Shown: positions 3,000 through 32,000, numbered from the stretch's first letter. The stretch: 32,000 nt of DNA from Candidatus Nitrosotalea bavarica (GCF_900167955.1 NZ_FUYK01000004.1:35975-67974); one strand, 5' to 3'. The notes: generated by a model not told the origin, from the sequence alone. Numbers and translations are program-made.

Positions 3000-4778
3000 A
3001 TGAAGGCCAGCTCACTTGCCTCCATGATTTTATCACTCAATGCAGTAGCAATGGGTGAAAACAAGGCAGATATTGTATTAAAAAATTGTAGACTAGTTAA
3101 CGTCTATTCTAGAGAAATTATACCTCAAATTCATGTAGCAATAAAAAAAGATAGGATTGCATACGTAGGAACAGACGCATCTCATACTGTTGGAGAGAAA
3201 ACCGGAGTCATTGATTTACAGGATAGATACATCACACCAGGATTTGTTGATCCTCATATCCACATAGATCAATATGTCCTTCCATCCGAACTTGCAAAAA
3301 AATCACTTTTGTCAGGTACTACGACTCTGTTTTCAGACCCAATTGATGTTGTAAGTGTTTGCGGTTACAAAGGGTTCAAGGAATTTGTTAAAATGACGCA
3401 GAGTCTACCAATCAGAGTTTATCATGTAATTCCGGGAGGATTGCCAGTTGATAGAAAATTTAGTCATGCAAGAACATTAACCAAGAAAGAAGAGCGAAAA
3501 GGACTAGACATAGAAAATGTAGTTGGCCTAGGCGAAGTATTCTCTTGGACCAAAGTTACAACAAGAGATCCTAAAACTATTGAAAGTATACACCATGTTT
3601 TAAAAAATAATGGCATCATAAATGGCCATACAGCTGGTGCAAGTGATAAAAAGCTAAATGCCTACATTGCCTCTGGAATTTTCTCATGTCATGAACCAAT
3701 TGACTATGATCAAGTCCTGGAACGATTGAGACTTGGAATGTGGGTTATGATGAGAGAAGGTTCTATAAGACGAGATCTTGATAAAATCTTACCTAACATA
3801 CTATCTCATAAAACCTATCTTGACAGGCTAATGTTCTGTACGGACGGAGTCACTCCAAAAGATCTTGTTGAATATGGTATGATTGATCATTGTATACGAA
3901 AAGCTATCTCTATTGGTATGGATCCAATAGATGCTATAACAATTGCATCAAAGAATTCTTTTGAATATTATGGTATGAGCAAAGACCGGGGTGCAATTGC
4001 CCCTGGTAAGCTAGCAGATATTCTTGTTTTTGATGATTTAGAAAAGATTAAGCCAAGCAAAGTCTTTGTAGGCGGAAAATTGATGGTGGCTCATAATAGT
4101 CTTGTAATAGACATACCCAAAACCCTAATTCCGGGTTGGATGCAAAAAACTGTAAAGACAGGAATAAAGTTTAGAGAAAAAGACTTTGTAATACAAAGTA
4201 AAGGAAACACTGTCAACGCATTGGTTATCAGACTTGACACCGAAATAATAACAAAAATGGATCAAGAGGAGCTTCAAGTAAGAGATGGTAATGTTATACC
4301 ATCACATGATAAAGATGTGTGGAAGGTAGCTGCTATTGATAGGATATATGGCACTGGAAAAAAAACTGTAGCATTTTTAAGAAATTTTGGTGCTGACATA
4401 GGAGCATTTGGATGTACACAGAGTTTTCATGAAAATGATATGATAGTTATAGGTTCAAATGAAAAAGACATGGCCTTTGTTGCAAATAATCTGACCAAAA
4501 TGCAAGGAGGAATGCTGGTAGCTAAAAACGGCAATATTCTAAGTAAATTTTCACTGCCACTTGCTGGTCTTATATCCACATTACCTTTTGAAAAAACATT
4601 AGATGAATATTCTAGTATAGATTCTAAACTCTTAGAAACTGGGTGTAAATTTAAAAATCCTCATCTCATACCTCTTTTCTTACCATTTCTTGCATTGCCT
4701 GAGATCAGAATCTTACACACTGGCGTTGTAGACGTAAAAAATAGAAGATATCTGAAGATCTTACACCTGAACCAATAA
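3000..4778 (+). CDS. ade: Adenine deaminase (amidohydrolase superfamily)
   Basis: About 590 aa. N-terminal ADIVLKNCRLVNV...IAIKKDRIAYVG followed by the FVDPHIHID metal-binding HxH motif. The length and extra C-terminal domain fit adenine deaminase rather than shorter amidohydrolases. First ATG (3000) is preferred to the tracked TTG at 2982. Confidence 0.75.
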   Translation: MKASSLASMILSLNAVAMGENKADIVLKNCRLVNVYSREIIPQIHVAIKKDRIAYVGTDASHTVGEKTGVIDLQDRYITPGFVDPHIHIDQYVLPSELAKKSLLSGTTTLFSDPIDVVSVCGYKGFKEFVKMTQSLPIRVYHVIPGGLPVDRKFSHARTLTKKEERKGLDIENVVGLGEVFSWTKVTTRDPKTIESIHHVLKNNGIINGHTAGASDKKLNAYIASGIFSCHEPIDYDQVLERLRLGMWVMMREGSIRRDLDKILPNILSHKTYLDRLMFCTDGVTPKDLVEYGMIDHCIRKAISIGMDPIDAITIASKNSFEYYGMSKDRGAIAPGKLADILVFDDLEKIKPSKVFVGGKLMVAHNSLVIDIPKTLIPGWMQKTVKTGIKFREKDFVIQSKGNTVNALVIRLDTEIITKMDQEELQVRDGNVIPSHDKDVWKVAAIDRIYGTGKKTVAFLRNFGADIGAFGCTQSFHENDMIVIGSNEKDMAFVANNLTKMQGGMLVAKNGNILSKFSLPLAGLISTLPFEKTLDEYSSIDSKLLETGCKFKNPHLIPLFLPFLALPEIRILHTGVVDVKNRRYLKILHLNQ

Positions 4779-4821: not shown

Positions 4822-6447
4822 TTGGCATCTATTCAACAAACACCACAAGGACCTGTTTTAGTACTAAAAGAAAGTGCATTACAACAAAAGGGTCGAGATG
4901 CGCAAAAGAATAACATTGCTGCGTCAAAGCTAGTTGCAGAGCTTGTAAGAACTAGTCTTGGCCCACGTGGAATGGATAAAATGCTTGTTGATTCTTTAGG
5001 TGACGTTACAATTACAAACGACGGTGCAACAATTCTCAAAGAAATTGATGTACAACATCCAGCTGCAAAAATGATGGTTGAAATTTCAAAAACTGTTGAT
5101 AATGAAGTAGGCGATGGAACAACATCATCTGTAGTATTTGCTGGTGCTCTTTTAGCAAAGGCTGAAGAGCTTTTAGAAAAAGATGTTCATGCTACAGTAA
5201 TTATTGAAGGCTATCAAGCAGCAGCAGAAAAAGCACTCCTACTTCTTACAGAAATGGCAAAGCAAGTAAGTCCAAATGAAAAAGAAGTTCTACTTAAAAT
5301 TGCCAAAACCAGCATGCAGTCAAAGCTCATCTCAGAAGATAGTGATATGCTATCCAAACTCGTGGTAGATTCAATTCTACAGGTTGTAGAAAAAGAAGCA
5401 GATGGACATAGAGTAGATCTAGACAATATTAAAGTGGAAAAGAAAGCAGGTGGTTCTATTAGAAATACTCAGTTTATCAAAGGCATAGTACTTGACAAAG
5501 AAGTTGTTCATAGTGGTATGCCAACTAAAATAGAAAAAGCAAAAATTGCATTACTAAATTCAGCTCTAGAAATAGAAAAAACTGAGATGAGTGCAGAAAT
5601 TAGAATTAGCGATCCTACTCAGATGCAAATGTTTCTTGAAGAGGAAAATAGAATGCTAAAATCCATGGTAGACAAGATTCACCAAATTGGTGCAAATGTT
5701 CTGATTTGTCAAAAGGGTATAGATGACATTGCACAACATTATCTAGCTAAACAAGGCATACTTTCAGTCAGAAGAGTAAAAGAAAGTGATATGACAAAGC
5801 TTGCCAAGGCAACTGGAGGTAGAATAAGTAGTAATATTGATGATATGACTACAAAGGACTTGGGTGCAGCAGAACTTGTTGAACAGAGAAAAGTTGAGAC
5901 AGACAAATGGGTCTTCATTGAAGGTTGCAAGAATCCAAAAGCTATTACATTATTGCTTAGGGGAGGATCTCAAAGAGTAGTGGATGAGGTTGATAGATCA
6001 ATGCATGATTCACTTATGGTTGTAAAAGATGTAATAGAAAAGCCAGCAGTTGTAGCTGGAGGTGGAGCCCCAGAAGAATACTTGGCTTCTCATCTAAAGG
6101 AATGGGCTGATAGATTCGAAGGAAGAGAACAACTTGCAATCAAAAAATATGCTGAAGCTCTTGAAATAATTCCACTTACAATTGCTGAAAATGCAGGAAT
6201 GGATCCAATCAATACTATGGTTACCCTTCGTGCAAAACACAGCCAAGGAAAAAAATGGACTGGTATTGATGCAAGAAATACTCGAGTTGCAGATATGTTT
6301 ACTATTGATATCATTGAGCCTGTTGCAGTAAAAGAGCAGATAATAAAATCTGCGACAGAAGCTGCATGTATGATACTTAGAATAGATGATGTTATTGCCT
6401 CATCCGGCGGCCGAGGTGGCGGCGGAAGAGGTCCTCCGATGGGCTAA
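4822..6447 (+). CDS. ths: Thermosome subunit (group II chaperonin)
   Basis: 541 aa with [27 protein letters not shown] and VAGGGAPE motifs, plus a Gly-rich C-terminal tail [13 protein letters not shown]. The TTG start is forced because the next Met lies inside GPRGMDKM. Confidence 0.96.
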
Positions 6448-11185: not shown

Positions 11186-11923
11186 TTATCTGACCAACCT
11201 TTGAAGGTCTTCTAATTTTATATTTTTGAATCCTATTATTGATTGGGATGTAGTATAAAGATCCGAATTACTTTTTTGGGCTAACCACTCTAAGAGTGAT
11301 TTTCCTTTCTTTAACTTTTTTAGTTTTAAAGATTTGTTATATGTTTCTACCTTAGAATATTTTCCTATGTGGATTCCAAAATCCATTCCAATTAGAATGA
11401 TTTTCGATGCTCCAAAGTGATTGGCAAGAAATACACATCTATCACCATCTGTGAATCCACCAAAGTTCCTAATTTTTCCAAATGGTTTGTCCTCTGTCGT
11501 TCCTATACAATATCTGAATGAAATTGCATGTGGAAGTTTGTTAATGTTGTCTCCATGTGCATGTACAATCATTACTGATTTGAGATCTGACGCTTTTTTG
11601 AGATATTCCATATTTCCATCAAGATCAGTTACTACAATATCTGGTCTTATTTTGTTTTCAATCAAAGCCTGTGTAACACCATCAGCTACAATCTTTGTAA
11701 AATTTTTAAATTTTTTTATGTAAGGTAAAGAAATACCGAGAGATGGTCCTGCTCCGATAATAAAAACAGTTTTGTTTTTAATTTTTTTTTCTAGTCTGCT
11801 TAACCCAAGTCTTGTCTTTAGAAGTGAATTGAGGATATTGGCTGATCTTATCTCTTTTGATCTATCATAATCAAATTCGTTTAAAATTTTTTGATATTTT
11901 TTCTCCCAACCATTCAAAGTCAT
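11186..11923 (-). CDS. mptE: 6-hydroxymethyl-7,8-dihydropterin pyrophosphokinase, archaeal MptE-like (DUF115 family)
   Basis: 245 aa with IIGAGPSL, VVTDLDG and VHAHGDN motifs characteristic of MptE-like kinases. Divergently paired with dihydropteroate synthase. Confidence 0.72.
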   Translation of the reverse strand: MTLNGWEKKYQKILNEFDYDRSKEIRSANILNSLLKTRLGLSRLEKKIKNKTVFIIGAGPSLGISLPYIKKFKNFTKIVADGVTQALIENKIRPDIVVTDLDGNMEYLKKASDLKSVMIVHAHGDNINKLPHAISFRYCIGTTEDKPFGKIRNFGGFTDGDRCVFLANHFGASKIILIGMDFGIHIGKYSKVETYNKSLKLKKLKKGKSLLEWLAQKSNSDLYTTSQSIIGFKNIKLEDLQRLVR

Positions 11924-11959
11924 GTAAGTCTAAATGTATCCAGGTTAATCATAAACTAT

Positions 11960-12826
11960 ATGCATGAACTCGCAGGAGTAAAAATAGGTGGTTCTAATCC
12001 ATTACGGATAATGGGAATTATAAATACAAGTCCAGAATCATTTTACAAAAAATCAGTATTTACTGACAAGCCAACTATAAGCAAGGTTTCAAAATTAATG
12101 GAAGAAGATGGCGCTGATTTTATTGATGTTGGAGGAATGTCTACTGCGCCATATGTGAAAACTCTGGTGTCGGAGGAACAAGAAATCAAAAGAATTACCA
12201 GTGCCATAGGCTCTATCCAAAAAGTCTCAAAGTTACCTATCTCTATAGACACATGTAGAGCAAAGGTAGCAAAGGCTGCACTTCAATTAGGAGCAGAAAT
12301 AATCAATGATGTTTCAGGCCTAAAATATGATAAAAATATGGTTGATGTACTTGAGGAATATCGCCCATCTGTAATTGTTTGTGCATTTAGCAATGATCTC
12401 ATAAAAGGAAATCTAGTCACACAAACAAGAAAATTGATTAATCAAAGTGTTACAATGGCATTAAAATCAGGAGTTCCAAAGAACAAGATCATAGTAGATC
12501 CTGCAATTGGTTTCTTTAGACAAAAGGCACAAGGCATATTGTTTACAAAAATAAATTCTGATTGGCTACAAAGAGACATCTCGGTACTGAAAAACTTGAA
12601 TAAAATAAAAGATCGATACCCCATTCTCATTTCAATTTCACGAAAGTCATTCATAGGAAAAATATTGGATGAACCAGATCCTACAGATCGAATCTATGGC
12701 TCTCTTGCAGCAGAAACTTTTGCTGCTCTAAACGGTGCTGATATACTACGAACACATAATGTAAAAGCTACAAGCGATGTAATCAAGATCGTAAATAGTT
12801 TAAAAAATCTCAAGAAAGGCTTATAA
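11960..12826 (+). CDS. folP: Dihydropteroate synthase-type pterin-binding enzyme
   Basis: IMGIINTSPESFY, DVGGMSTAPY, ISIDT, INDVSG, DPAIGF, SRKSFIG and LRTHNV follow the order of DHPS signature blocks. Start set at ATG 11960 (MHELAGV...). The tracked TTG at 11891 would overlap the mptE N-terminus. Confidence 0.85.
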   Translation: MHELAGVKIGGSNPLRIMGIINTSPESFYKKSVFTDKPTISKVSKLMEEDGADFIDVGGMSTAPYVKTLVSEEQEIKRITSAIGSIQKVSKLPISIDTCRAKVAKAALQLGAEIINDVSGLKYDKNMVDVLEEYRPSVIVCAFSNDLIKGNLVTQTRKLINQSVTMALKSGVPKNKIIVDPAIGFFRQKAQGILFTKINSDWLQRDISVLKNLNKIKDRYPILISISRKSFIGKILDEPDPTDRIYGSLAAETFAALNGADILRTHNVKATSDVIKIVNSLKNLKKGL

Positions 12827-12856
12827 CAGATTTTCATTCTAACCAAGAAGGTTTCA

Positions 12857-14296
12857 TTGGAAATAAGGGAAGGACTAACATTTGATGATGTACTCCTTGT
12901 TCCTAAACGATCAGATATAGTTACTAGGTCTCAAACAAATCTGCAAACAAAACTTTCAAAAAATATTTCGCTTAACATACCTGTAATCAGTGCAAACATG
13001 GATACTGTAACTGAATCTGCCATGGCAGTGGCAATAGCGAGGGAGGGTGGAATTGGAATTATACATCGATTTCTTACTATTTCAGAACAGGTAAACGAGG
13101 TACTCAAAACAAAACGTTCAGGCAGCATAATAATAGAAAATCCATATACTATAGATCCAAAACAAACAGTACACGAAGCTATAGAATCTATGCGTGAAAA
13201 AGGAGCTTCAGGATTGCTTGTGACAGATAATCAAGGTCAACTTGTTGGAATATTGACAAGAAGAGATATTGTTATGCTCGAGACAAAAGATGAAAATAAA
13301 AAAGTCGACGAGGTTATGACAAGCGATGTTATTACAGCAAAATCTGGAATATCTATAGTTGAAGCAAAAGAAATACTTCGAAAAAACTGCATTGAAAAAT
13401 TACCGCTTTTAGATGAACGTGGGCATGTCAAAGGATTGATCACTAGTAAAGATATCATTAATGCTGGTAATTACCCACATGCATCAAAAGACAGGAAAGG
13501 AAGACCATTGGTAGGAGCTGCAGTCGGTGTAAAGGGAGATTTTATGGAAAGAACAGAAGCATTGCTAGATGCAGGTGCTGATGTCATAGTGGTGGATATT
13601 GCACATGGACATAGTGAGAACGCAATTAACACAGTTCGATTGATAAAGAAGGCTTTTCCAAATTGTGAATTAATTGCAGGAAATGTAGCTACCGCTCAAG
13701 GTACAGAGGATCTCATCAAAGCCGGTGTAGATGCAGTAAAGGTAGGAGTGGGCTCTGGTTCCATCTGTATCACTAGAGTAATCACTGGATCTGGGGTACC
13801 TCAGCTTACCGCTGTACTGGACTGTGCACAAGTTGGCAAAAAATATGATATTCCAATAATATCTGATGGTGGTGTAAGGACATCTGGTGATGCTACAAAA
13901 GCACTTGCTGCCGGAGCATCTACTGTAATGGTTGGAAGCTTATTAGGGGGAACAGATGAAAGTCCTGGTTCATTTATGACGAAAAATGGTAAACGATACA
14001 AGATTTACCGAGGTATGGCATCATTTTATGCAGCTCTTGGAAGAAAGAGCAAGGAAACCAGTAATGCTTCTATGGTAGAAGATCTTAATGATTATGTTGC
14101 AGAAGGTGTTGAGGCAATGGTTCCATACAAGGGAAGTGTAACTGATATCATAAAACAACTAACGGGAGGAATCCGTTCTGGTTTAAGTTATTGTGGCGCA
14201 AATACTATTCCTCAAATGCAACAAAATGCTGAATTTATAAAAATGTCAACAGCTGGATATGCAGAAAGTCAACCACATGATGTAGAGTTAATGTAA
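12857..14296 (+). CDS. guaB: IMP dehydrogenase with CBS-pair subdomain
   Basis: 479 aa with [19 protein letters not shown], the catalytic loop [12 protein letters not shown], and GGxxxSGD. TTG start is forced because the next Met lies far inside conserved sequence. Confidence 0.96.
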
Positions 14297-23674: not shown

Positions 23675-24741
23675 AAAAAGATTGGTTTGAAAAAGAATTA
23701 GAAAAATATTCTAAACTTGTAGGTTACAAGAAACCTGAAAAATATTCTAATGTGATAAAACTTGATTCAAACGAAAATTATGTAGTATCTCAGGAATTTC
23801 TTCAGAAAATGATAAACGAAGTGAAGGAAAACATAGATGTTAGAGAATATCCATTAGGTGGAACAGAAAGATTATCTCAATCTATTTCAAAATACATGGG
23901 AATACCAAGAGAAATGATTGGTGTTGGAAACGGATCTGATCAGATAATTGATCTTATTCTAAGTACCTTTGCTTCTAAAGGAACAAAAATTCTAACATCT
24001 GATCCAACCTTTGGATTCTTTGAAGAACGATGTAAACTATATTCTATTCGTACATTAAAAATTCCATTTGATAAAAATATGACCCTTGATCTAGAAAAAT
24101 TTTTGTTAAACTCCAAGAAAGCTGATATTCTTTATCTTGATATGCCAAATAATCCAACTGGATTTCAATTTCAGAGAAAAGATCTAGAAAAATTGATTCG
24201 GGAATTCAAGGGCCTTGTAATCATAGATGAAGCATATGTGGAATTCTCTGATTATTCTATTGTAGAAATGACAAAAAAAATCAATAATCTTATTGTGTTA
24301 CGAACCTTATCAAAATCGTTTGGATTAGCTGGATTGCGAGTAGGGTATTTAGTGGCTAATTCCAAAATAATTGATACATTTACGAGGGTAATCCAATATC
24401 CTTATCCGTTAAACACTCTGGCAATAGAGATTGGTATAGTGGCATTAAGACAATCCAAATATTTCACAGATATTGCAGATCTTGTCAAGAAAGAACGTTT
24501 ACGAATTATCATTAATCTTAAACAGATGAAAATATTCGAGGTATTTGACTCAAAAGCAAATTTTGTTCTTTTTTCAGCTGGAGGTTCTGGTCAAAGAATT
24601 CACAAGGCACTAATCGAACAAGGTATATCAATTAAAAATCTTGGTAAAATTGGTCAACATGAAGGCTGTCTGAGAGTTACCGTAGGTTCACAAGATATGA
24701 ATTCTAAATTTCTTACAGCTATACGGGATTTATTGAATTGA
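23671..24741 (+). CDS. hisC: Histidinol-phosphate aminotransferase
   Basis: 356 aa, class II aminotransferase pattern. LDSNEN, NPNNPTG-like PNNPTG, IDEAY and the PLP lysine context LRTLSKSFGLAGLRVGY. ATGA overlap with hisD. Confidence 0.9.
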   Translation: MKKDWFEKELEKYSKLVGYKKPEKYSNVIKLDSNENYVVSQEFLQKMINEVKENIDVREYPLGGTERLSQSISKYMGIPREMIGVGNGSDQIIDLILSTFASKGTKILTSDPTFGFFEERCKLYSIRTLKIPFDKNMTLDLEKFLLNSKKADILYLDMPNNPTGFQFQRKDLEKLIREFKGLVIIDEAYVEFSDYSIVEMTKKINNLIVLRTLSKSFGLAGLRVGYLVANSKIIDTFTRVIQYPYPLNTLAIEIGIVALRQSKYFTDIADLVKKERLRIIINLKQMKIFEVFDSKANFVLFSAGGSGQRIHKALIEQGISIKNLGKIGQHEGCLRVTVGSQDMNSKFLTAIRDLLN

Positions 24742-25724
24742 CTTTAAACGAAATACAAAATGGAATCATGATAGATTCCACAAAAATCGAAAAGATAAAG
24801 CAACTAGACTCTATAGTGTTTGACTGTGATGGAGTTCTAATAGACGTGTCTAATTCTTATGATTTGGCTATAAAAAAGACTGTAGATTTTATTATAAAAG
24901 AAATGGCCCAAGTCAATGAATCTGGATTAGTAACAACAAGTATGATAGAAGGTTTCAAGACTAGCGGTGGTTTTAATGATGAAATTGATGTGGCGTATGC
25001 GTTAATACTTTCCGTTGTAGCTGCAAAGAAAAAAAATGAATTATTTTCTAAATTTGTTCTTAAAGTAATAGAAAATACAGATCAGACCGGCATAAAATCA
25101 GTTGAGAAATATCTAGACAGTATCAACATTAATGTTTTTGATATCAGAAAAAAACTATCGTATCCAAGTGAAAAATTCCAAAATCCTCTTTCCTCCATAT
25201 TTGACGAAATGTTCTATGGTTCTGAATTATATGTACAACTTTACAAGAGAAAACCACAGTTTTTTGATGGTTTGGGATTAATTGAAAACGATGTAGTACT
25301 TTTGAATAAAGACCTTGTAAAAAGTTTACATGAAAGATTTGGCAAAAAAATTGCCATTGTGACAGGCCGAGGTCTTCTATCAGCAAAACATTCTCTTAAA
25401 GACCTATTCGATGAATTTGATTTGAATAATTCTAGATTCCTAGAGGATGAGCCACGTGAAATGGCAAAACCAAATCCTCAATCTCTTATATCTACAATAA
25501 ATGGTATGAACGGAAATAACTCGCTATACGTGGGTGACTCTATGGAGGACTATATCATGGCACGTAAGGCAAATGAGTCTGGAGTTTCAACAATATTCTG
25601 TGGGGTATATGGCACTAGCAAGGACCAGGATGCAAAAAGATCTCTATTTGAGAGCAACAATGCCGACATTATAGTCAAATCTATAGATCTAATTCCGAAG
25701 ACATTAAATCTAGTTAGGGCATAA
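24738..25724 (+). CDS. HAD-superfamily phosphatase with a large cap insertion; candidate histidinol-phosphate phosphatase
   Basis: 328 aa. HAD motif I is [11 protein letters not shown], motif II IAIVTGR, motif III AKPNP and motif [14 protein letters not shown]. About 170 aa lie between motifs I and II. The gene is embedded between hisC (TTGA overlap, or ATG at 24768) and hisB. The HAD fold call is solid; the substrate call is contextual. Confidence 0.7.
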
Positions 25725-28479: not shown

Positions 28480-28809
28480 GTGAATAAAAAAATAAATGAT
28501 ATTGATTTTGCAAAAAGTGAAGGTCTTGTACCAGTAATTGTCCAAGATGTACATTCTAGAGAAGTTTTAACACTTGCATATGTAAATAAGGAATCTCTTG
28601 AACTTACTCAAAAAACTGGTAACTCGTGGTTCTGGAGCAGATCGAGAAACAAATTGTGGATGAAAGGAGAAGAATCAGGGAATATCCAAAAAGTCAAGGA
28701 AATTTTGGTAGATTGTGATTCTGATGCAATTATCTATCTGGTAGAACCAAGTGGACCTGCATGTCATACTGGAGAAAAAGTTTGTTTTCACAACATTTTA
28801 GAAAAATAA
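28480..28809 (+). CDS. hisI: Phosphoribosyl-AMP cyclohydrolase (monofunctional, no HisE domain)
   Basis: 109 aa with [42 protein letters not shown] and CHTGEKVCF motifs. GTG start. Confidence 0.9.
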
Positions 28810-28813
28810 TTCT

Positions 28814-29320
28814 TTAACACGGATCTAATCCCTTAGGTACGGTGTCCAAACCCTCAGTTTTATTTGAATATTCTGGAATATACTCGTTTATAATTTCAAA
28901 TGGTATTGATTTGTAAGGAACACCATCAAATATGATGTTCCAATGACCTACAAGCGATGTGGCATTACATAGCGAAAGGTTTCTTTCCGTATTAGGTTCA
29001 AAAAACTGTTTAAAGCTAGATTTTATTGTTCCATTAAATGGTATTTTGCTATAAGTGTCTCCTTTTGGATCTACAATATCAATTTCTCCTACATCAGTCG
29101 GTTTTAAGTCGCTTACTACAATGAAAATATGTTCTCCAAGTTTGTATTGATTCTTATTAATTGAAAATGGTCCAGAGGTAATCCATACCCACGGTTGTCC
29201 TTTACTTGCCTCTTGTTGATAATAAGAGTAAACTATAGCTGCAACTATTCCCGCTAATACAATTAACATAATTATTTTTCCTAAATGTTTCTTCTTTTTT
29301 GATCTCTGTTTTATTTTCAA
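28814..29320 (-). CDS. Hypothetical membrane-anchored extracytoplasmic protein
   Basis: 168-aa ORF with a basic N-terminus (KQRSKKKKH) followed by one TM (IIMLIVLAGIVAAIVYSYY). TTG start at 29320. No family recognised. Confidence 0.5.
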   Translation of the reverse strand: MKIKQRSKKKKHLGKIIMLIVLAGIVAAIVYSYYQQEASKGQPWVWITSGPFSINKNQYKLGEHIFIVVSDLKPTDVGEIDIVDPKGDTYSKIPFNGTIKSSFKQFFEPNTERNLSLCNATSLVGHWNIIFDGVPYKSIPFEIINEYIPEYSNKTEGLDTVPKGLDPC

Positions 29321-29554: not shown

Positions 29555-30772
29555 TTGGGAAAAATAAAATTTCTGCAATGCAGAGAATGTAAGAAGGAAT
29601 ATGCACCTACATTCAAGTATATTTGTGAGGAATGCTTTGGTCCTCTAGATGTGTGCTATGATTTTCCATCTGTGAATAAAAATACTTTTTCAAATCGCGA
29701 ACATACCTACTGGAGATATCATGAACTTTTACCAATTGAATCAAAATTCAATATCATAAGTATTGGTGCTGGAATGACCCCATTAATTAAGGCAGAAAAA
29801 TTGGGTAAATCACTCGGTCTGAATAATCTTTACATAAAAAATGATTCAGTAAATCCCACATTTTCATTTAAAGATAGACCTGCTGGAGTAGCAGTATCAA
29901 AAGCAAAAGAATTTGGTCTTTCTGCAGTGGGATGTGCATCTACCGGAAATCTTGCATCAGCTACAGCAGCGCATGCAGCAAAAGGTGATTTTCCTTGTTA
30001 CATATTTGCACCTAGTGATATTGAGCATGCAAAGATAACCCAAGCATTAGCTTATGGTGCTAATTTCATATCTGTTGATGGAACATATGATGACGCAAAT
30101 CGAATTGCTGCTCAAATAGGTGATAGCAAAGGTATAGGAATAGTAAACATAAACATGCGTTCGTATTATGTTGAAGGATCTAAGACACTAGCTTATGAAG
30201 TGGCAGAACAACTTGACTGGCAAGTACCTGATCAACTTATTGTACCAGTTGGTAGCGGAGCCATGTTAAATGCTATTTGTAAAGGCTTTGAAGAACTAGA
30301 AAATATTTCATTAATCAATCAAGTCTCTAACATGCATATGATTGCAGCTCAGCCACATGGATGTGCACCTATTGTTAATGCTTTCAAGAAAAAACTTTCA
30401 GAAGTAACTCCAGTGGAAACTCCGGATACCATCGCAAAAAGTTTAGCAATAGGTGATCCAGGTGACGGACAGTATGTATTAAGACGACTAAAACAATACA
30501 ATGGTTTTGCTGAGGAATCTAATAACAAGGAGATCTTGGATGCTATACTATTGCTGGCTAGAACTGAGGGAATATTTACAGAACCTGCCGGCGGTGTCTC
30601 TGTGGCAGTATTGAAAAAAATGGTTGATGAAGGAAAAATTGACAAGAATGATTGTACCGTATGTTATGTGACTGGTAATGGATTGAAAACAACAGAAGTT
30701 ATGATGGAAGTACTTCCAAAGCCTCAAGTAATGCAAGCTGATTTTGGTAAAATTTCAGCATTGGTGAGATAG
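29555..30772 (+). CDS. Threonine synthase-family PLP enzyme with an N-terminal zinc ribbon; true reaction uncertain given its neighbour
   Basis: 405 aa. CRECKKEY...CEEC zinc ribbon. PLP-lysine block NPTFSFKDRPAG (Lys codon 29870-29872), then ASTGNLASA and VPVGSGA, in the order found in the ThrC family. The TTG start is forced: it is the first start codon after the in-frame TAA at 29504-29506 and is needed to include the zinc ribbon. Confidence 0.85.
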   Translation: MGKIKFLQCRECKKEYAPTFKYICEECFGPLDVCYDFPSVNKNTFSNREHTYWRYHELLPIESKFNIISIGAGMTPLIKAEKLGKSLGLNNLYIKNDSVNPTFSFKDRPAGVAVSKAKEFGLSAVGCASTGNLASATAAHAAKGDFPCYIFAPSDIEHAKITQALAYGANFISVDGTYDDANRIAAQIGDSKGIGIVNINMRSYYVEGSKTLAYEVAEQLDWQVPDQLIVPVGSGAMLNAICKGFEELENISLINQVSNMHMIAAQPHGCAPIVNAFKKKLSEVTPVETPDTIAKSLAIGDPGDGQYVLRRLKQYNGFAEESNNKEILDAILLLARTEGIFTEPAGGVSVAVLKKMVDEGKIDKNDCTVCYVTGNGLKTTEVMMEVLPKPQVMQADFGKISALVR

Positions 30773-32000
30773 ATGGCAAATATCAAATTTACAATTCCTT
30801 CCGTATTGAACAAAGGTGGAGGAGAAAAGAAAGTAGACCTTACAGCTTCTACTCTTTTGGAAGCATTTGCTAAAATCTCAGAACAACTAGGAGACGAATT
30901 CAAAAGACGCGTTCTTAATCCAGATGGTTCTCCTAGATCGCTTATCAACATATACATCAACGGAAAAAACATGCGATTTTCAGGAGGTATGGAAACATCC
31001 CTAAAAGATGGGGATGAGATTTACGTATTGCCTGCAGTAGCTGGAGGATCTGAGCTATCAAGTAGAGATCTAGAAAAATATTCTAGACAAGTAATGCTAG
31101 AAGAAATTGGTTATGAGGGTCAACTCAAACTAAAAAAGGCAAAAGCATGTGTTGTTGGAGTGGGTGGACTTGGTAATCCTATAGTAACGCGACTGGTTGC
31201 TATGGGAATAGGAACGATAAGAATTGTTGATAGAGATGTGATAGAGTTATCCAATCTGCATAGGCAAACAATGTTTGATGAATCCGATATTGGTCAGGTC
31301 AAAGTTGAGGTAGCCGCAAAGAAACTAAAAAAAATGAACCCTGATGTCATAATTGAGGCATTACCTGTTTCTGTAAATGACTATACTGCACTAGATGTAG
31401 TAGAAGGATGTGATGTTGTAATTGATGCACTTGACAGTGTTAATGCAAGATATTCTCTTAACAAAGCCTGTATTAAAAAAAATATTCCATTTGTAACAGG
31501 AGCTGCAGTAGGAGTTTCAGGTCAGGTATTTACTATCTTGCCACATCAAACTGCATGTTATCATTGCATATTTCCGTCCTTGGATGAAAATTCTATGCCT
31601 ACATGTAGTACGGAGGGAGTTCACCCATCAATACTTTCTATTGTTGGGGGAATTGAGGTTGCAGAAGCAGTCAAAATTATGATAGGACGAACTCCAACAT
31701 TGGCAAATAAATTACTCTACATTGATCTTGATAATCTTGATTTCAATACTACTGTTTTCAATAAAGTAGATGAATGTCCCGAATGTGGTTCAGGTAAACA
31801 TGAAGAATTACCAACACAGGAATTCATTGTTGAAGAACTATGTGGACGTAACAGGGGAAAACGTACTTTCTCTATTACTCCAACAAAGATGATTGAGATT
31901 GACGTTCCAAAAATAACTAGTATTGCATCAGAGAAAGGCTTCAAAGTACAAAATCAAGGTGAACTTGGATTATCAATTTCTTCTAATGATATCTATGTGA
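30773..32000 (+). CDS. Fusion protein, 5' part only: CysO/MoaD/ThiS-like beta-grasp sulfur-carrier domain (aa 1-92, ending AVAGG) joined in frame to an E1-like ThiF/MoeB adenylyltransferase. Runs off the window.
   Basis: My own translation from ATG 30773, which immediately follows the ThrC-like TAG, is open for 409 codons to nt 32000, so the ORF is absent from the complete-ORF track. The N-terminal domain reads MANIKFTIPSVLNKGGGEKKV...INIYINGKNMRFSGGMETSLKDGDEIYVLPAVAGG, with the GG codons at 31043-31048. The E1 part follows directly: LEKYSRQV...GVGGLGNP...DRDVIELSNLHRQ, CYHC and CPEC zinc-site pairs, and the crossover-loop Cys in PTCSTEGV (31604-31606). Confidence 0.85.
   Translation, partial: MANIKFTIPSVLNKGGGEKKVDLTASTLLEAFAKISEQLGDEFKRRVLNPDGSPRSLINIYINGKNMRFSGGMETSLKDGDEIYVLPAVAGGSELSSRDLEKYSRQVMLEEIGYEGQLKLKKAKACVVGVGGLGNPIVTRLVAMGIGTIRIVDRDVIELSNLHRQTMFDESDIGQVKVEVAAKKLKKMNPDVIIEALPVSVNDYTALDVVEGCDVVIDALDSVNARYSLNKACIKKNIPFVTGAAVGVSGQVFTILPHQTACYHCIFPSLDENSMPTCSTEGVHPSILSIVGGIEVAEAVKIMIGRTPTLANKLLYIDLDNLDFNTTVFNKVDECPECGSGKHEELPTQEFIVEELCGRNRGKRTFSITPTKMIEIDVPKITSIASEKGFKVQNQGELGLSISSNDIYV

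Follow-up and report, generated by a model that had tools for sequence, protein, structure and literature searches.

A ThrC-family enzyme and a sulfur carrier fused to its E1 as a candidate MetM/MetO-type route to homocysteine in ammonia-oxidising archaea

The 3′ end of a 32,000-nucleotide stretch of the Candidatus Nitrosotalea bavarica genome (GCF_900167955.1 NZ_FUYK01000004.1:35975-67974, hereafter the window) encodes a pyridoxal phosphate (PLP) enzyme of the threonine synthase (ThrC) family and, immediately downstream, a ThiS/MoaD-type sulfur carrier fused to an adenylating E1. We propose that this gene pair constitutes a MetM/MetO-type system, which would convert O-phosphohomoserine to homocysteine with a protein thiocarboxylate as the sulfur nucleophile, and we estimate the probability of this reading at roughly two in three. 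Judged from its sequence, the enzyme is a candidate carrier-thiocarboxylate-dependent homocysteine synthase belonging to a MetM-like clade, referred to here as class M. A thiocarboxylate-dependent, homocysteine-forming role had been put forward in an earlier note on this DNA. It gained comparative support from the conservation of the pair in ammonia-oxidising archaea (AOA), the retention of the carrier where the E1 is missing, the placement of the enzyme in a separate clade, and the S-adenosylmethionine (SAM) riboswitches and ThiS genes found next to its relatives.

AOA are among the most abundant microbes of soil and ocean and grow without added amino acids. Our literature search found no paper on how they make homocysteine and none linking them to the MetM/MetO route, and the GapMind supplement held nothing on methionine in Nitrosopumilus maritimus. 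If the proposal is correct, the homocysteine step would be assigned to a gene that all annotations now call threonine synthase, a fusion listed among molybdenum-cofactor proteins would be reassigned, and the recent MetM/MetO route would be extended to a major archaeal phylum. The pair would fill a likely pathway hole in very abundant organisms and offer a natural case in which a sulfur carrier and the enzyme that activates it are made as one polyprotein; the principle itself is not new. What the comparisons support as new is the MetM/MetO logic in AOA, with the carrier apparently made as a polyprotein with a rhodanese-less E1.

Conservation and domain structure of the gene pair

Calls of open reading frames (ORFs) bore out the arrangement described in the earlier note, in which the stop codon of the ThrC-like gene (TAG, 30770-30772) is followed on the next nucleotide by an ATG. 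The second ORF starts zero nucleotides after the TAG, at 30773, and runs without a stop for 409 codons to the end of the window; its full-length counterpart in close relatives is 438 amino acids long (L002:11219-12535). The note had divided this ORF into a CysO/MoaD-type carrier of 92 residues and an adenylating E1, and had pointed to a likeness to mycobacterial CysO. Both parts of this description held: Pfam ThiS matched residues 18-92 (37.4 bits, cut-off 22.5), Pfam ThiF matched residues 103-335 (247 bits), and the best solved matches of the carrier, over residues 3-92, were two CysO proteins, from Amycolatopsis orientalis (4n6e_B, E 3e-13) and Mycobacterium tuberculosis (3dwg_C, E 3e-12). 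Our analysis added a zinc ribbon in the enzyme, the lack of a rhodanese domain in the E1 and an extra E1 C-terminal domain of about 95 residues.

Scanning a species-representative genome collection recovered the enzyme orthologue from 80 AOA species, sampled from Nitrosotalea, Nitrosotenuis, Nitrosarchaeum, Nitrosopumilus, Nitrosopelagicus, Cenarchaeum, Nitrososphaera, other Nitrososphaeraceae and Nitrosothermus; the DNA downstream was readable in 77 of them. The earlier note had suggested looking for the pair in relatives, and the two genes were adjacent in all 77 species, with the carrier start lying between an 8-nucleotide overlap and 54 nucleotides past the enzyme stop. This adjacency spans three orders (Nitrosopumilales, Nitrososphaerales and Nitrosothermus), and the flanking genes, hisI excepted, differed among the AOA loci compared. 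The heptapeptide LPAVAGG, which ends the carrier, was invariant in 77/77 loci; the linker after it varied in length and sequence.

The Gly-Gly is internal in 73 of the 77 species, the window included, where the reading frame continues past it into the E1. The E1 has been lost or split off in the other four (L048, L074, L077 and L080), in which the enzyme gene is intact and the carrier has an ORF of its own, with the stop directly after the Gly-Gly (L048 and L074) or four residues later (L077 and L080). The carrier of L048 is followed by a DDE transposase and, beyond it, a decayed E1 fragment, an arrangement that looks like a recent break-up of the fusion; on this Nitrosopumilus chromosome the transposase (11779-13005) lies right after the Gly-Gly stop and an 85-residue E1 remnant occupies 13136-13393. 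An opposite-strand transporter gene follows the carrier in L074, and the E1 is gone from L077 and L080. Since all four species keep both the enzyme and the carrier, the two form a conserved unit, and the Gly-Gly probably marks the functional end of the carrier. In the fused proteins it would be exposed by cleavage.

We compared the AOA carrier with the ThiS genes adjoining class-M enzymes in other phyla, to which it is 31-38% identical; identity to an unlinked ThiS of L088 was 22%. The clade-linked carriers end in [IVL]P[AS]xAGG, some with a tail of 5-29 residues past the Gly-Gly. These separate homologous genes and the removable tails on some of them, together with the free-standing carriers of the four AOA species and the invariance of the Gly-Gly and the preceding LPAVA beside a variable linker, make it highly improbable that the N-terminal beta-grasp domain is never released. 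Under that explanation it would be a module of the E1 that acts in cis in docking or regulation, or a pseudo-substrate, and the real carrier would lie elsewhere; the prevalence of the fusion and the failure to find a nearby protease gene would fit, but the fused MoaD of another fusion is known to need cleavage, according to the account in PMC11237513.

The best solved relatives of the E1 were E. coli ThiF and MoeB, and a Foldseek search with the E1 core returned ThiF, MoeB and MccB. The zinc cysteines C262, C265, C335 and C338 and the loop cysteine Cys278 were invariant in 65 AOA sequences; we take Cys278 to be the acyl-persulfide or thioester cysteine, by likeness to ThiF, MoeB and UbaA. The E1 scored below every MoeB, ThiF and UbaA equivalog cut-off (MoeB TIGR02355, 173 against 377; NF006444, 219 against 449), the MoeZ model gave 157 bits for a cut-off of 647, and no rhodanese domain was matched in full-length E1 relatives. 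The carrier also fell below the MoaD and SAMP1 equivalog cut-offs (moaD_arch, 42.3 against 49.5). No moaA, moaC or moaE was present in the window or in the Pfam-annotated neighbourhoods of L001-L004. The C-terminal domain of the E1 contains an invariant Cys357 in the motif E-x-LCGR-xx-GKR-x-F; it had no Pfam match even at E 10 and no sequence match to a solved structure, and it is predicted to adopt a beta-beta-alpha-beta4-alpha fold (pLDDT 56-80). For the full fusion, AlphaFold gave a model (mean pLDDT 62; the alignment was shallow) that was too weak for assigning a fold to the C-terminal domain, and in it only the E1 core matched ThiF/MoeB.

The ThrC-homologue clade, its active site and its genomic context

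The 405-residue enzyme is a fold-type II PLP enzyme (Pfam PALP, 241 bits), whose closest solved relatives are the threonine synthases of Aquifex, Bacillus, Mycobacterium, Thermus and Arabidopsis (34-40% identity over the core). It scored above the NCBIfam threonine-synthase cut-offs (TIGR00260, 296 against 167; NF006050, 314 against 303). TIGR00260 was also passed by the riboswitch-linked homologues P0339 and P0129 and by three further clade members tested. Because riboswitch-linked members pass as well, a ThrC profile match does not discriminate. Family names were therefore dropped as evidence, NF006050 and TIGR00260 matching clade members and non-members alike. NCBIfam holds no MetM-specific model. 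Automated metabolic reconstruction is affected, as current profile models cannot separate the clade from true threonine synthases. The cysteate synthase model TIGR03844 matched the enzyme weakly (80.6 bits, cut-off 325).

A HMMER search of 1.84 billion cluster representatives yielded 150 diverse ThrC-family relatives. The 134 full-length representatives (at least 370 residues) were aligned with AOA sequences, Micromonospora P0339 and five solved ThrC structures, and neighbour-joining trees of 145 ThrC-family sequences were bootstrapped with all columns and with the motif columns masked. The derived motifs described below were present in 44 sequences, 36 in strict and 8 in near form, and these formed one clade that held the AOA and excluded every solved ThrC; AOA monophyly was recovered in 100/100 bootstraps. 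Since exact-bipartition support for the clade was modest, a smallest-clade measure was also taken. The smallest clade with the AOA and P0339 and without a solved ThrC held at most two intruders in 100/100 bootstraps with all columns, and in 97% of the 98 motif-masked replicates in which such a clade existed. The clade includes the riboswitch-linked P0339, P0129, P0191 and P0166, which have three motifs in common with the AOA enzyme.

The first motif, the PLP-lysine segment, reads NPTFSFKDRP in the AOA enzyme, NPTGSFKDRG in the four bacterial ThrC structures and SHTGSFKDLG in Arabidopsis. The second is ASTGNL instead of ASTGNT (bacterial structures) or ASTGDT (Arabidopsis). The third is a loop, VNINMRSYYVEGSKT, one residue longer than the VNSVNPxRxEGQKT of the four bacterial structures. 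Arabidopsis ThrC, with the loop ANSLNSLRLEGQKT, retains the glycine, the threonine and the short loop, and all five solved loops fit [VA]NS[VL]NxxRxEGQKT. The positions changed in the AOA enzyme are, in Thermus numbering, Gly58 (to Phe), Gly64 (to Pro), Thr88 (to Leu), Ser155 (to Ile), Arg160 (to Tyr, with an Arg three positions earlier) and Gln164. The derived motifs were kept in 80/80 AOA species, the loop with minor variants. Thr88, Ser155 and Arg160 of Thermus ThrC are said to bind the substrate phosphate, and the retained phosphate reportedly serves as the base that steers water to C-beta. With these three residues replaced, the AOA enzyme is, as far as its sequence tells, not a canonical threonine synthase. 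By analogy, Leu, Ile and Tyr in place of the phosphate ligands would fit an enzyme that no longer retains phosphate to deliver water. The earlier note had left the placement of the enzyme to phylogeny and active-site comparison; these set it in a clade apart from the solved ThrC, with a remodelled phosphate site.

The zinc ribbon at the N-terminus was found in 80/80 AOA species (C9, C12, C24, C27, F28 and G29 being invariant in one alignment), and its CxxCFGPL[ED]V form is common to the AOA enzyme and class-M relatives. The ribbon does not define the clade: the motifs of some ribbon proteins are fully canonical, and others carry fused PadR or LeuA domains. Among zinc-ribbon homologues outside the clade, P0148, P0179 and P0243 carry a C-terminal PadR winged-helix domain, and P0150, P0157 and about ten others (~610-627 residues) a C-terminal LeuA_dimer domain, which suggests built-in regulation of archaeal threonine synthases. 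Rosetta-stone fusions to a carrier were considered for the zinc-ribbon homologues and discarded, the longer homologues carrying PadR or LeuA allosteric domains instead.

We examined eight clade loci outside AOA (L005, L086, L088, L089, L090, L093, L094 and L095). A SAM riboswitch was located directly upstream of the enzyme gene in four of the eight (L005, from Micromonospora coriariae, 69 bits; L089, 72; L094, 77; L095, 69; gathering score 44). A ThiS-family gene was located directly downstream in seven: L086 (Thermoplasmatota), L088 (Euryarchaeota), L089, L090, L093, L094 and L095. L089 combines the riboswitch and the ThiS gene in one operon. The carrier is followed by a homoserine dehydrogenase gene in L086, and by homoserine dehydrogenase and GHMP kinase genes in L088. 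By contrast, zinc-ribbon ThrC homologues outside the clade (L091 and L092) have threonine-pathway neighbours and lack a ThiS neighbour; L091 is surrounded by aspartate kinase, homoserine dehydrogenase and GHMP kinase genes, and L092 adjoins an AA_kinase-domain gene.

Some details of these loci are recorded as side observations. The ThrC-like and ThiS genes lead the operon in two euryarchaeal lineages, L086 (7591-8739) and L088 (6657-8980), which resembles a threonine operon with an inserted sulfur carrier. Among non-AOA relatives that are full-length and have a readable locus, the closest is that of L093, where a stand-alone 78-residue NIL-domain gene (3826-4062) comes after the ThiS gene that adjoins the ThrC-like gene; methionine transporters and the homocysteine system of methanogens contain NIL domains. 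Public gene calls are mis-started or frameshifted at L095:4001-5188 and 5349-5558, L094:5137-5509 and L004:1379-2699. Because the coding region called in L095 includes the SAM riboswitch, the database protein P0166 has a spurious N-terminus.

The recurrence of the enzyme-carrier adjacency in seven of eight unrelated loci with different neighbours indicates that shared ancestry of gene order is not its explanation. This bears on whether the enzyme is a housekeeping threonine synthase only, sitting by inherited synteny next to a carrier-E1 that works in a sulfur relay unconnected with it (for molybdopterin synthase, tRNA 2-thiolation or SAMP-type conjugation), an explanation that we consider unlikely. 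SAM riboswitches point to the regulation of methionine rather than threonine, the carrier stays beside the enzyme after E1 loss, the canonical phosphate-site residues are replaced, neither the carrier nor the E1 reaches the cut-offs of the families named above, and moa genes are absent from the Pfam-annotated neighbourhoods. Yet the curated threonine-synthase models are passed, all sources name the enzyme threonine synthase, and hisI is also a conserved neighbour with no obvious functional link, so that synteny alone can persist in AOA. Published data that would suit a threonine-only enzyme are the threonine-synthase kinetics of a related clade member in vitro (PMC12172450) and the cataloguing of the fusion as MoaD-MoeB (PMC11237513).

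Comparison with known systems and proposed mechanism

The earlier note had mentioned a ThrC homologue working with a carrier, and this precedent exists: in Streptomyces albulus, MetM is a ThrC homologue under a SAM riboswitch and MetO is a small carrier (Hasebe et al. 2024, Appl Environ Microbiol 90:e01247-24, as related in 10.1101/2024.10.14.618325 and PMC12172450). According to the former account, thiocarboxylated MetO is used to convert O-phosphohomoserine to homocysteine, Mec matures the carrier, MoeZ charges it, and MetM is commonly misannotated as threonine synthase (10.1101/2024.10.14.618325). The AOA pair likewise unites a ThrC-homologous PLP enzyme with a small ThiS/MoaD-type Gly-Gly carrier, the probable substrate and product being O-phosphohomoserine and homocysteine, and bacterial clade-mates of the AOA enzyme carry a SAM riboswitch as metM does. 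Unlike MetO, the AOA carrier is fused to its own E1, so that its release would require cleavage of a whole protein instead of a short tail. Unlike MoeZ, the AOA E1 has no rhodanese and has instead a family-less C-terminal domain with an invariant cysteine. Unlike in S. albulus, no riboswitch and no Mec/JAMM gene were found near the AOA pair, and an Rfam scan of the whole window returned zero riboswitches and zero other RNA families.

The CysO-CysM-MoeZ-Mec system of M. tuberculosis provides a second parallel, in which a protein thiocarboxylate attacks a PLP-bound, aminoacrylate-type intermediate derived from a phosphorylated hydroxy-amino acid. The AOA PLP enzyme differs from CysM in belonging to the ThrC family, not to CysK/CysM, and would probably perform a gamma- rather than a beta-replacement on O-phosphohomoserine. 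With canonical ThrC it shares the fold and the PLP lysine, and probably the substrate and the first half-reaction; it differs in the six changed positions, the longer loop, the zinc ribbon and the carrier gene that always follows. Ubiquitin precursor fusions also hold a Gly-Gly carrier that is freed by a cut after the Gly-Gly. The same need for an N-terminal Gly-Gly carrier to be cut from a larger protein is described for mycobacterial MoaX, a fused MoaD-MoaE (PMC11237513). Unlike in MoaX and ubiquitin precursors, the fusion partner in AOA is the activating E1 itself.

In another explanation the product is a sulfur compound other than homocysteine, either cysteine formed from O-phosphoserine as by CysM/CysO, or an AOA-specific thio-amino acid or cofactor precursor. 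CysO proteins, the closest solved relatives of the carrier, serve cysteine and thiosugar synthesis, the ThrC fold was recruited earlier for O-phosphoserine chemistry in cysteate synthase (whose model TIGR03844 matches weakly), and no AOA-specific regulatory or operon clue to methionine was found. However, the clues from relatives (SAM riboswitches, homoserine dehydrogenase and kinase, the NIL domain) lead to methionine and homoserine, and the AOA enzymes carry the active-site motifs of the clade almost exactly, although these are where one would expect a new substrate to leave its mark. A different product is thus quite unlikely. Cysteine in particular is a less favoured product, since the links seen in regulation and operons are with methionine and homoserine, not with serine.

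For a MetM/MetO-type system, we propose the following mechanism. The second gene, a fusion in the DNA itself, encodes a polyprotein made of the 92-residue carrier, a short linker, the ThiF-type E1 and the C-terminal domain. A protease not encoded nearby would cut after Gly92 and free the Gly-Gly carboxylate of the carrier. The E1 would adenylate this carboxylate, and persulfide sulfur would turn the adenylate into a thiocarboxylate; since the E1 has no rhodanese domain, the sulfur relay may run via Cys278 and/or Cys357. By analogy with MetM/MetO and CysM/CysO, the PLP enzyme would eliminate phosphate from O-phosphohomoserine and the carrier thiocarboxylate would attack C-gamma, in contrast to threonine synthase, in which water is added at C-beta. 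An acyl shift and hydrolysis would then give homocysteine and the regenerated carrier.

Several observations weigh against this proposal. No second ThrC was found by tblastn within 10 kb in the 80 AOA loci or in the closely related contigs L001-L004, nor was one present in the 32-kb window; AOA cells may have no other ThrC-family enzyme, in which case this one must make threonine. According to PMC12172450, a Microcystis member of the clade, 51.6% identical to MetM and encoded beside a metO-like gene, is a competent threonine synthase in vitro, and clear homocysteine was not seen when it was supplied with sulfide. Clade membership is therefore compatible with a threonine role. The same source sketches a duplication followed by gene deletion (PMC12172450), a scenario under which the Microcystis enzyme may be the sole ThrC there. 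The activity of the archaeal members is predicted from comparative evidence, and the AOA link to S. albulus MetM was set by its published description (a ThrC homologue, a SAM riboswitch and a MetO neighbour). Exact-bipartition bootstrap support for the clade was 54/100, and 47/100 with motifs masked, by neighbour joining only. A regular-expression scan of all loci for the JAMM motif gave no relevant match, no processing protease was found within 10 kb in any AOA locus, and no recognisable sulfurtransferase domain was found. The fusion itself has been listed as MoaD-MoeB, cluster 356.1, under molybdenum-cofactor synthesis, and is reported from 61/98 thaumarchaeal assemblies and also from Rokubacteria/NC10 (PMC11237513). 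That filing rests on domain names, whereas here the invariant partner is ThrC-like and the carrier and the E1 each fall short of the equivalog cut-offs for MoaD and MoeB.

Because the Microcystis clade member is a competent threonine synthase, the AOA enzyme may serve both threonine and homocysteine, and may thus retain threonine-synthase activity as well. A more speculative extension, which we regard as possible but doubtful, is that one AOA ThrC-family enzyme forms a branch point between threonine (with water) and homocysteine (with the carrier), the split being set by the release and charging of the carrier, and that the cysteine-bearing C-terminal domain replaces rhodanese in the sulfur relay.

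Layout of the locus and neighbouring genes

The features of the locus are collected in Table 1. The source organism is a Nitrosotalea-like archaeon within the Nitrosopumilaceae. The flanking genes are housekeeping: a histidine operon upstream and, downstream in relatives, DUF354, a gene without known family and grpE-dnaK-dnaJ.

Table 1 Features of the ThrC-like and carrier-E1 genes, in window coordinates
Feature	Position	Strand	Basis
ThrC-family PLP enzyme ORF, 405 residues, TTG start, TAG 30770-30772	29555..30772	+	ORF call, Pfam PALP
N-terminal zinc ribbon, C9-x2-C12 ... C24-x2-C27-FGPLDV	29579..29635	+	Alignment
Lys106 codon, PLP-binding lysine in NPTFSFK106DRP	29870..29872	+	Alignment to Thermus thermophilus ThrC Lys61
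ASTGNL motif, residues 128-133; Leu133 in place of canonical Thr88	29936..29953	+	Alignment
Loop VNINMRSYYVEGSKT, residues 197-211	30143..30187	+	Alignment
Sulfur-carrier domain, 92 residues, ThiS/MoaD beta-grasp, CysO/MetO type, ending ...LPAVAGG	30773..31048	+	Pfam ThiS, CysO structure matches
Gly91-Gly92 codons; putative processing and thiocarboxylation site	31043..31048	+	LPAVAGG invariance, ends of free-standing ORFs
Linker SELSSRDLEK, carrier to E1, 10 residues	31049..31078	+	Variable among AOA; low-confidence predicted structure
ThiF/MoeB-type adenylating E1 domain, residues 103-335	31079..31777	+	Pfam ThiF
Cys278 codon in MPTCSTEGV, E1 crossover-loop cysteine	31604..31606	+	Invariant in 65/65 AOA sequences
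Start of E1 C-terminal domain, truncated at the window end (full extent in relatives, residues 343-438)	31799..32000	+	Conservation
hisI (PRA-CH), upstream neighbour, context only	28480..28809	+	Pfam PF01502

In loci of Nitrosopumilales, Nitrososphaerales and Nitrosothermus the enzyme gene has hisI upstream of it, a conserved neighbour that probably stands outside the system. It lies directly upstream in six of the seven loci compared (L040, L048, L062, L074, L077, L079 and L082; it was not recovered in L040). This adjacency holds across the three AOA orders even where the remaining his operon sits elsewhere, with no obvious functional link.

Between hisI and the ThrC-like gene of the window, the opposite strand has a 168-residue ORF (28814-29320, minus strand) with an N-terminal hydrophobic segment and no family match; it is called as a gene of 151-174 residues in the close relatives L001-L003. 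The gene without known family that lies between DUF354 and grpE in Nitrosotalea relatives is a conserved 408-residue ORF with no Pfam family (L002:13547-14773, plus strand; L004:3711-4937), to which L048:11779-13005 is unrelated. The histidine operon of the window contains, between hisC and hisB, a 328-residue HAD-family hydrolase (24738-25724, plus strand), a candidate histidinol-phosphate phosphatase. This step is reported as a gap in 20% of the prototroph genomes surveyed in the GapMind 2026 preprint (10.1101/2024.10.14.618325).

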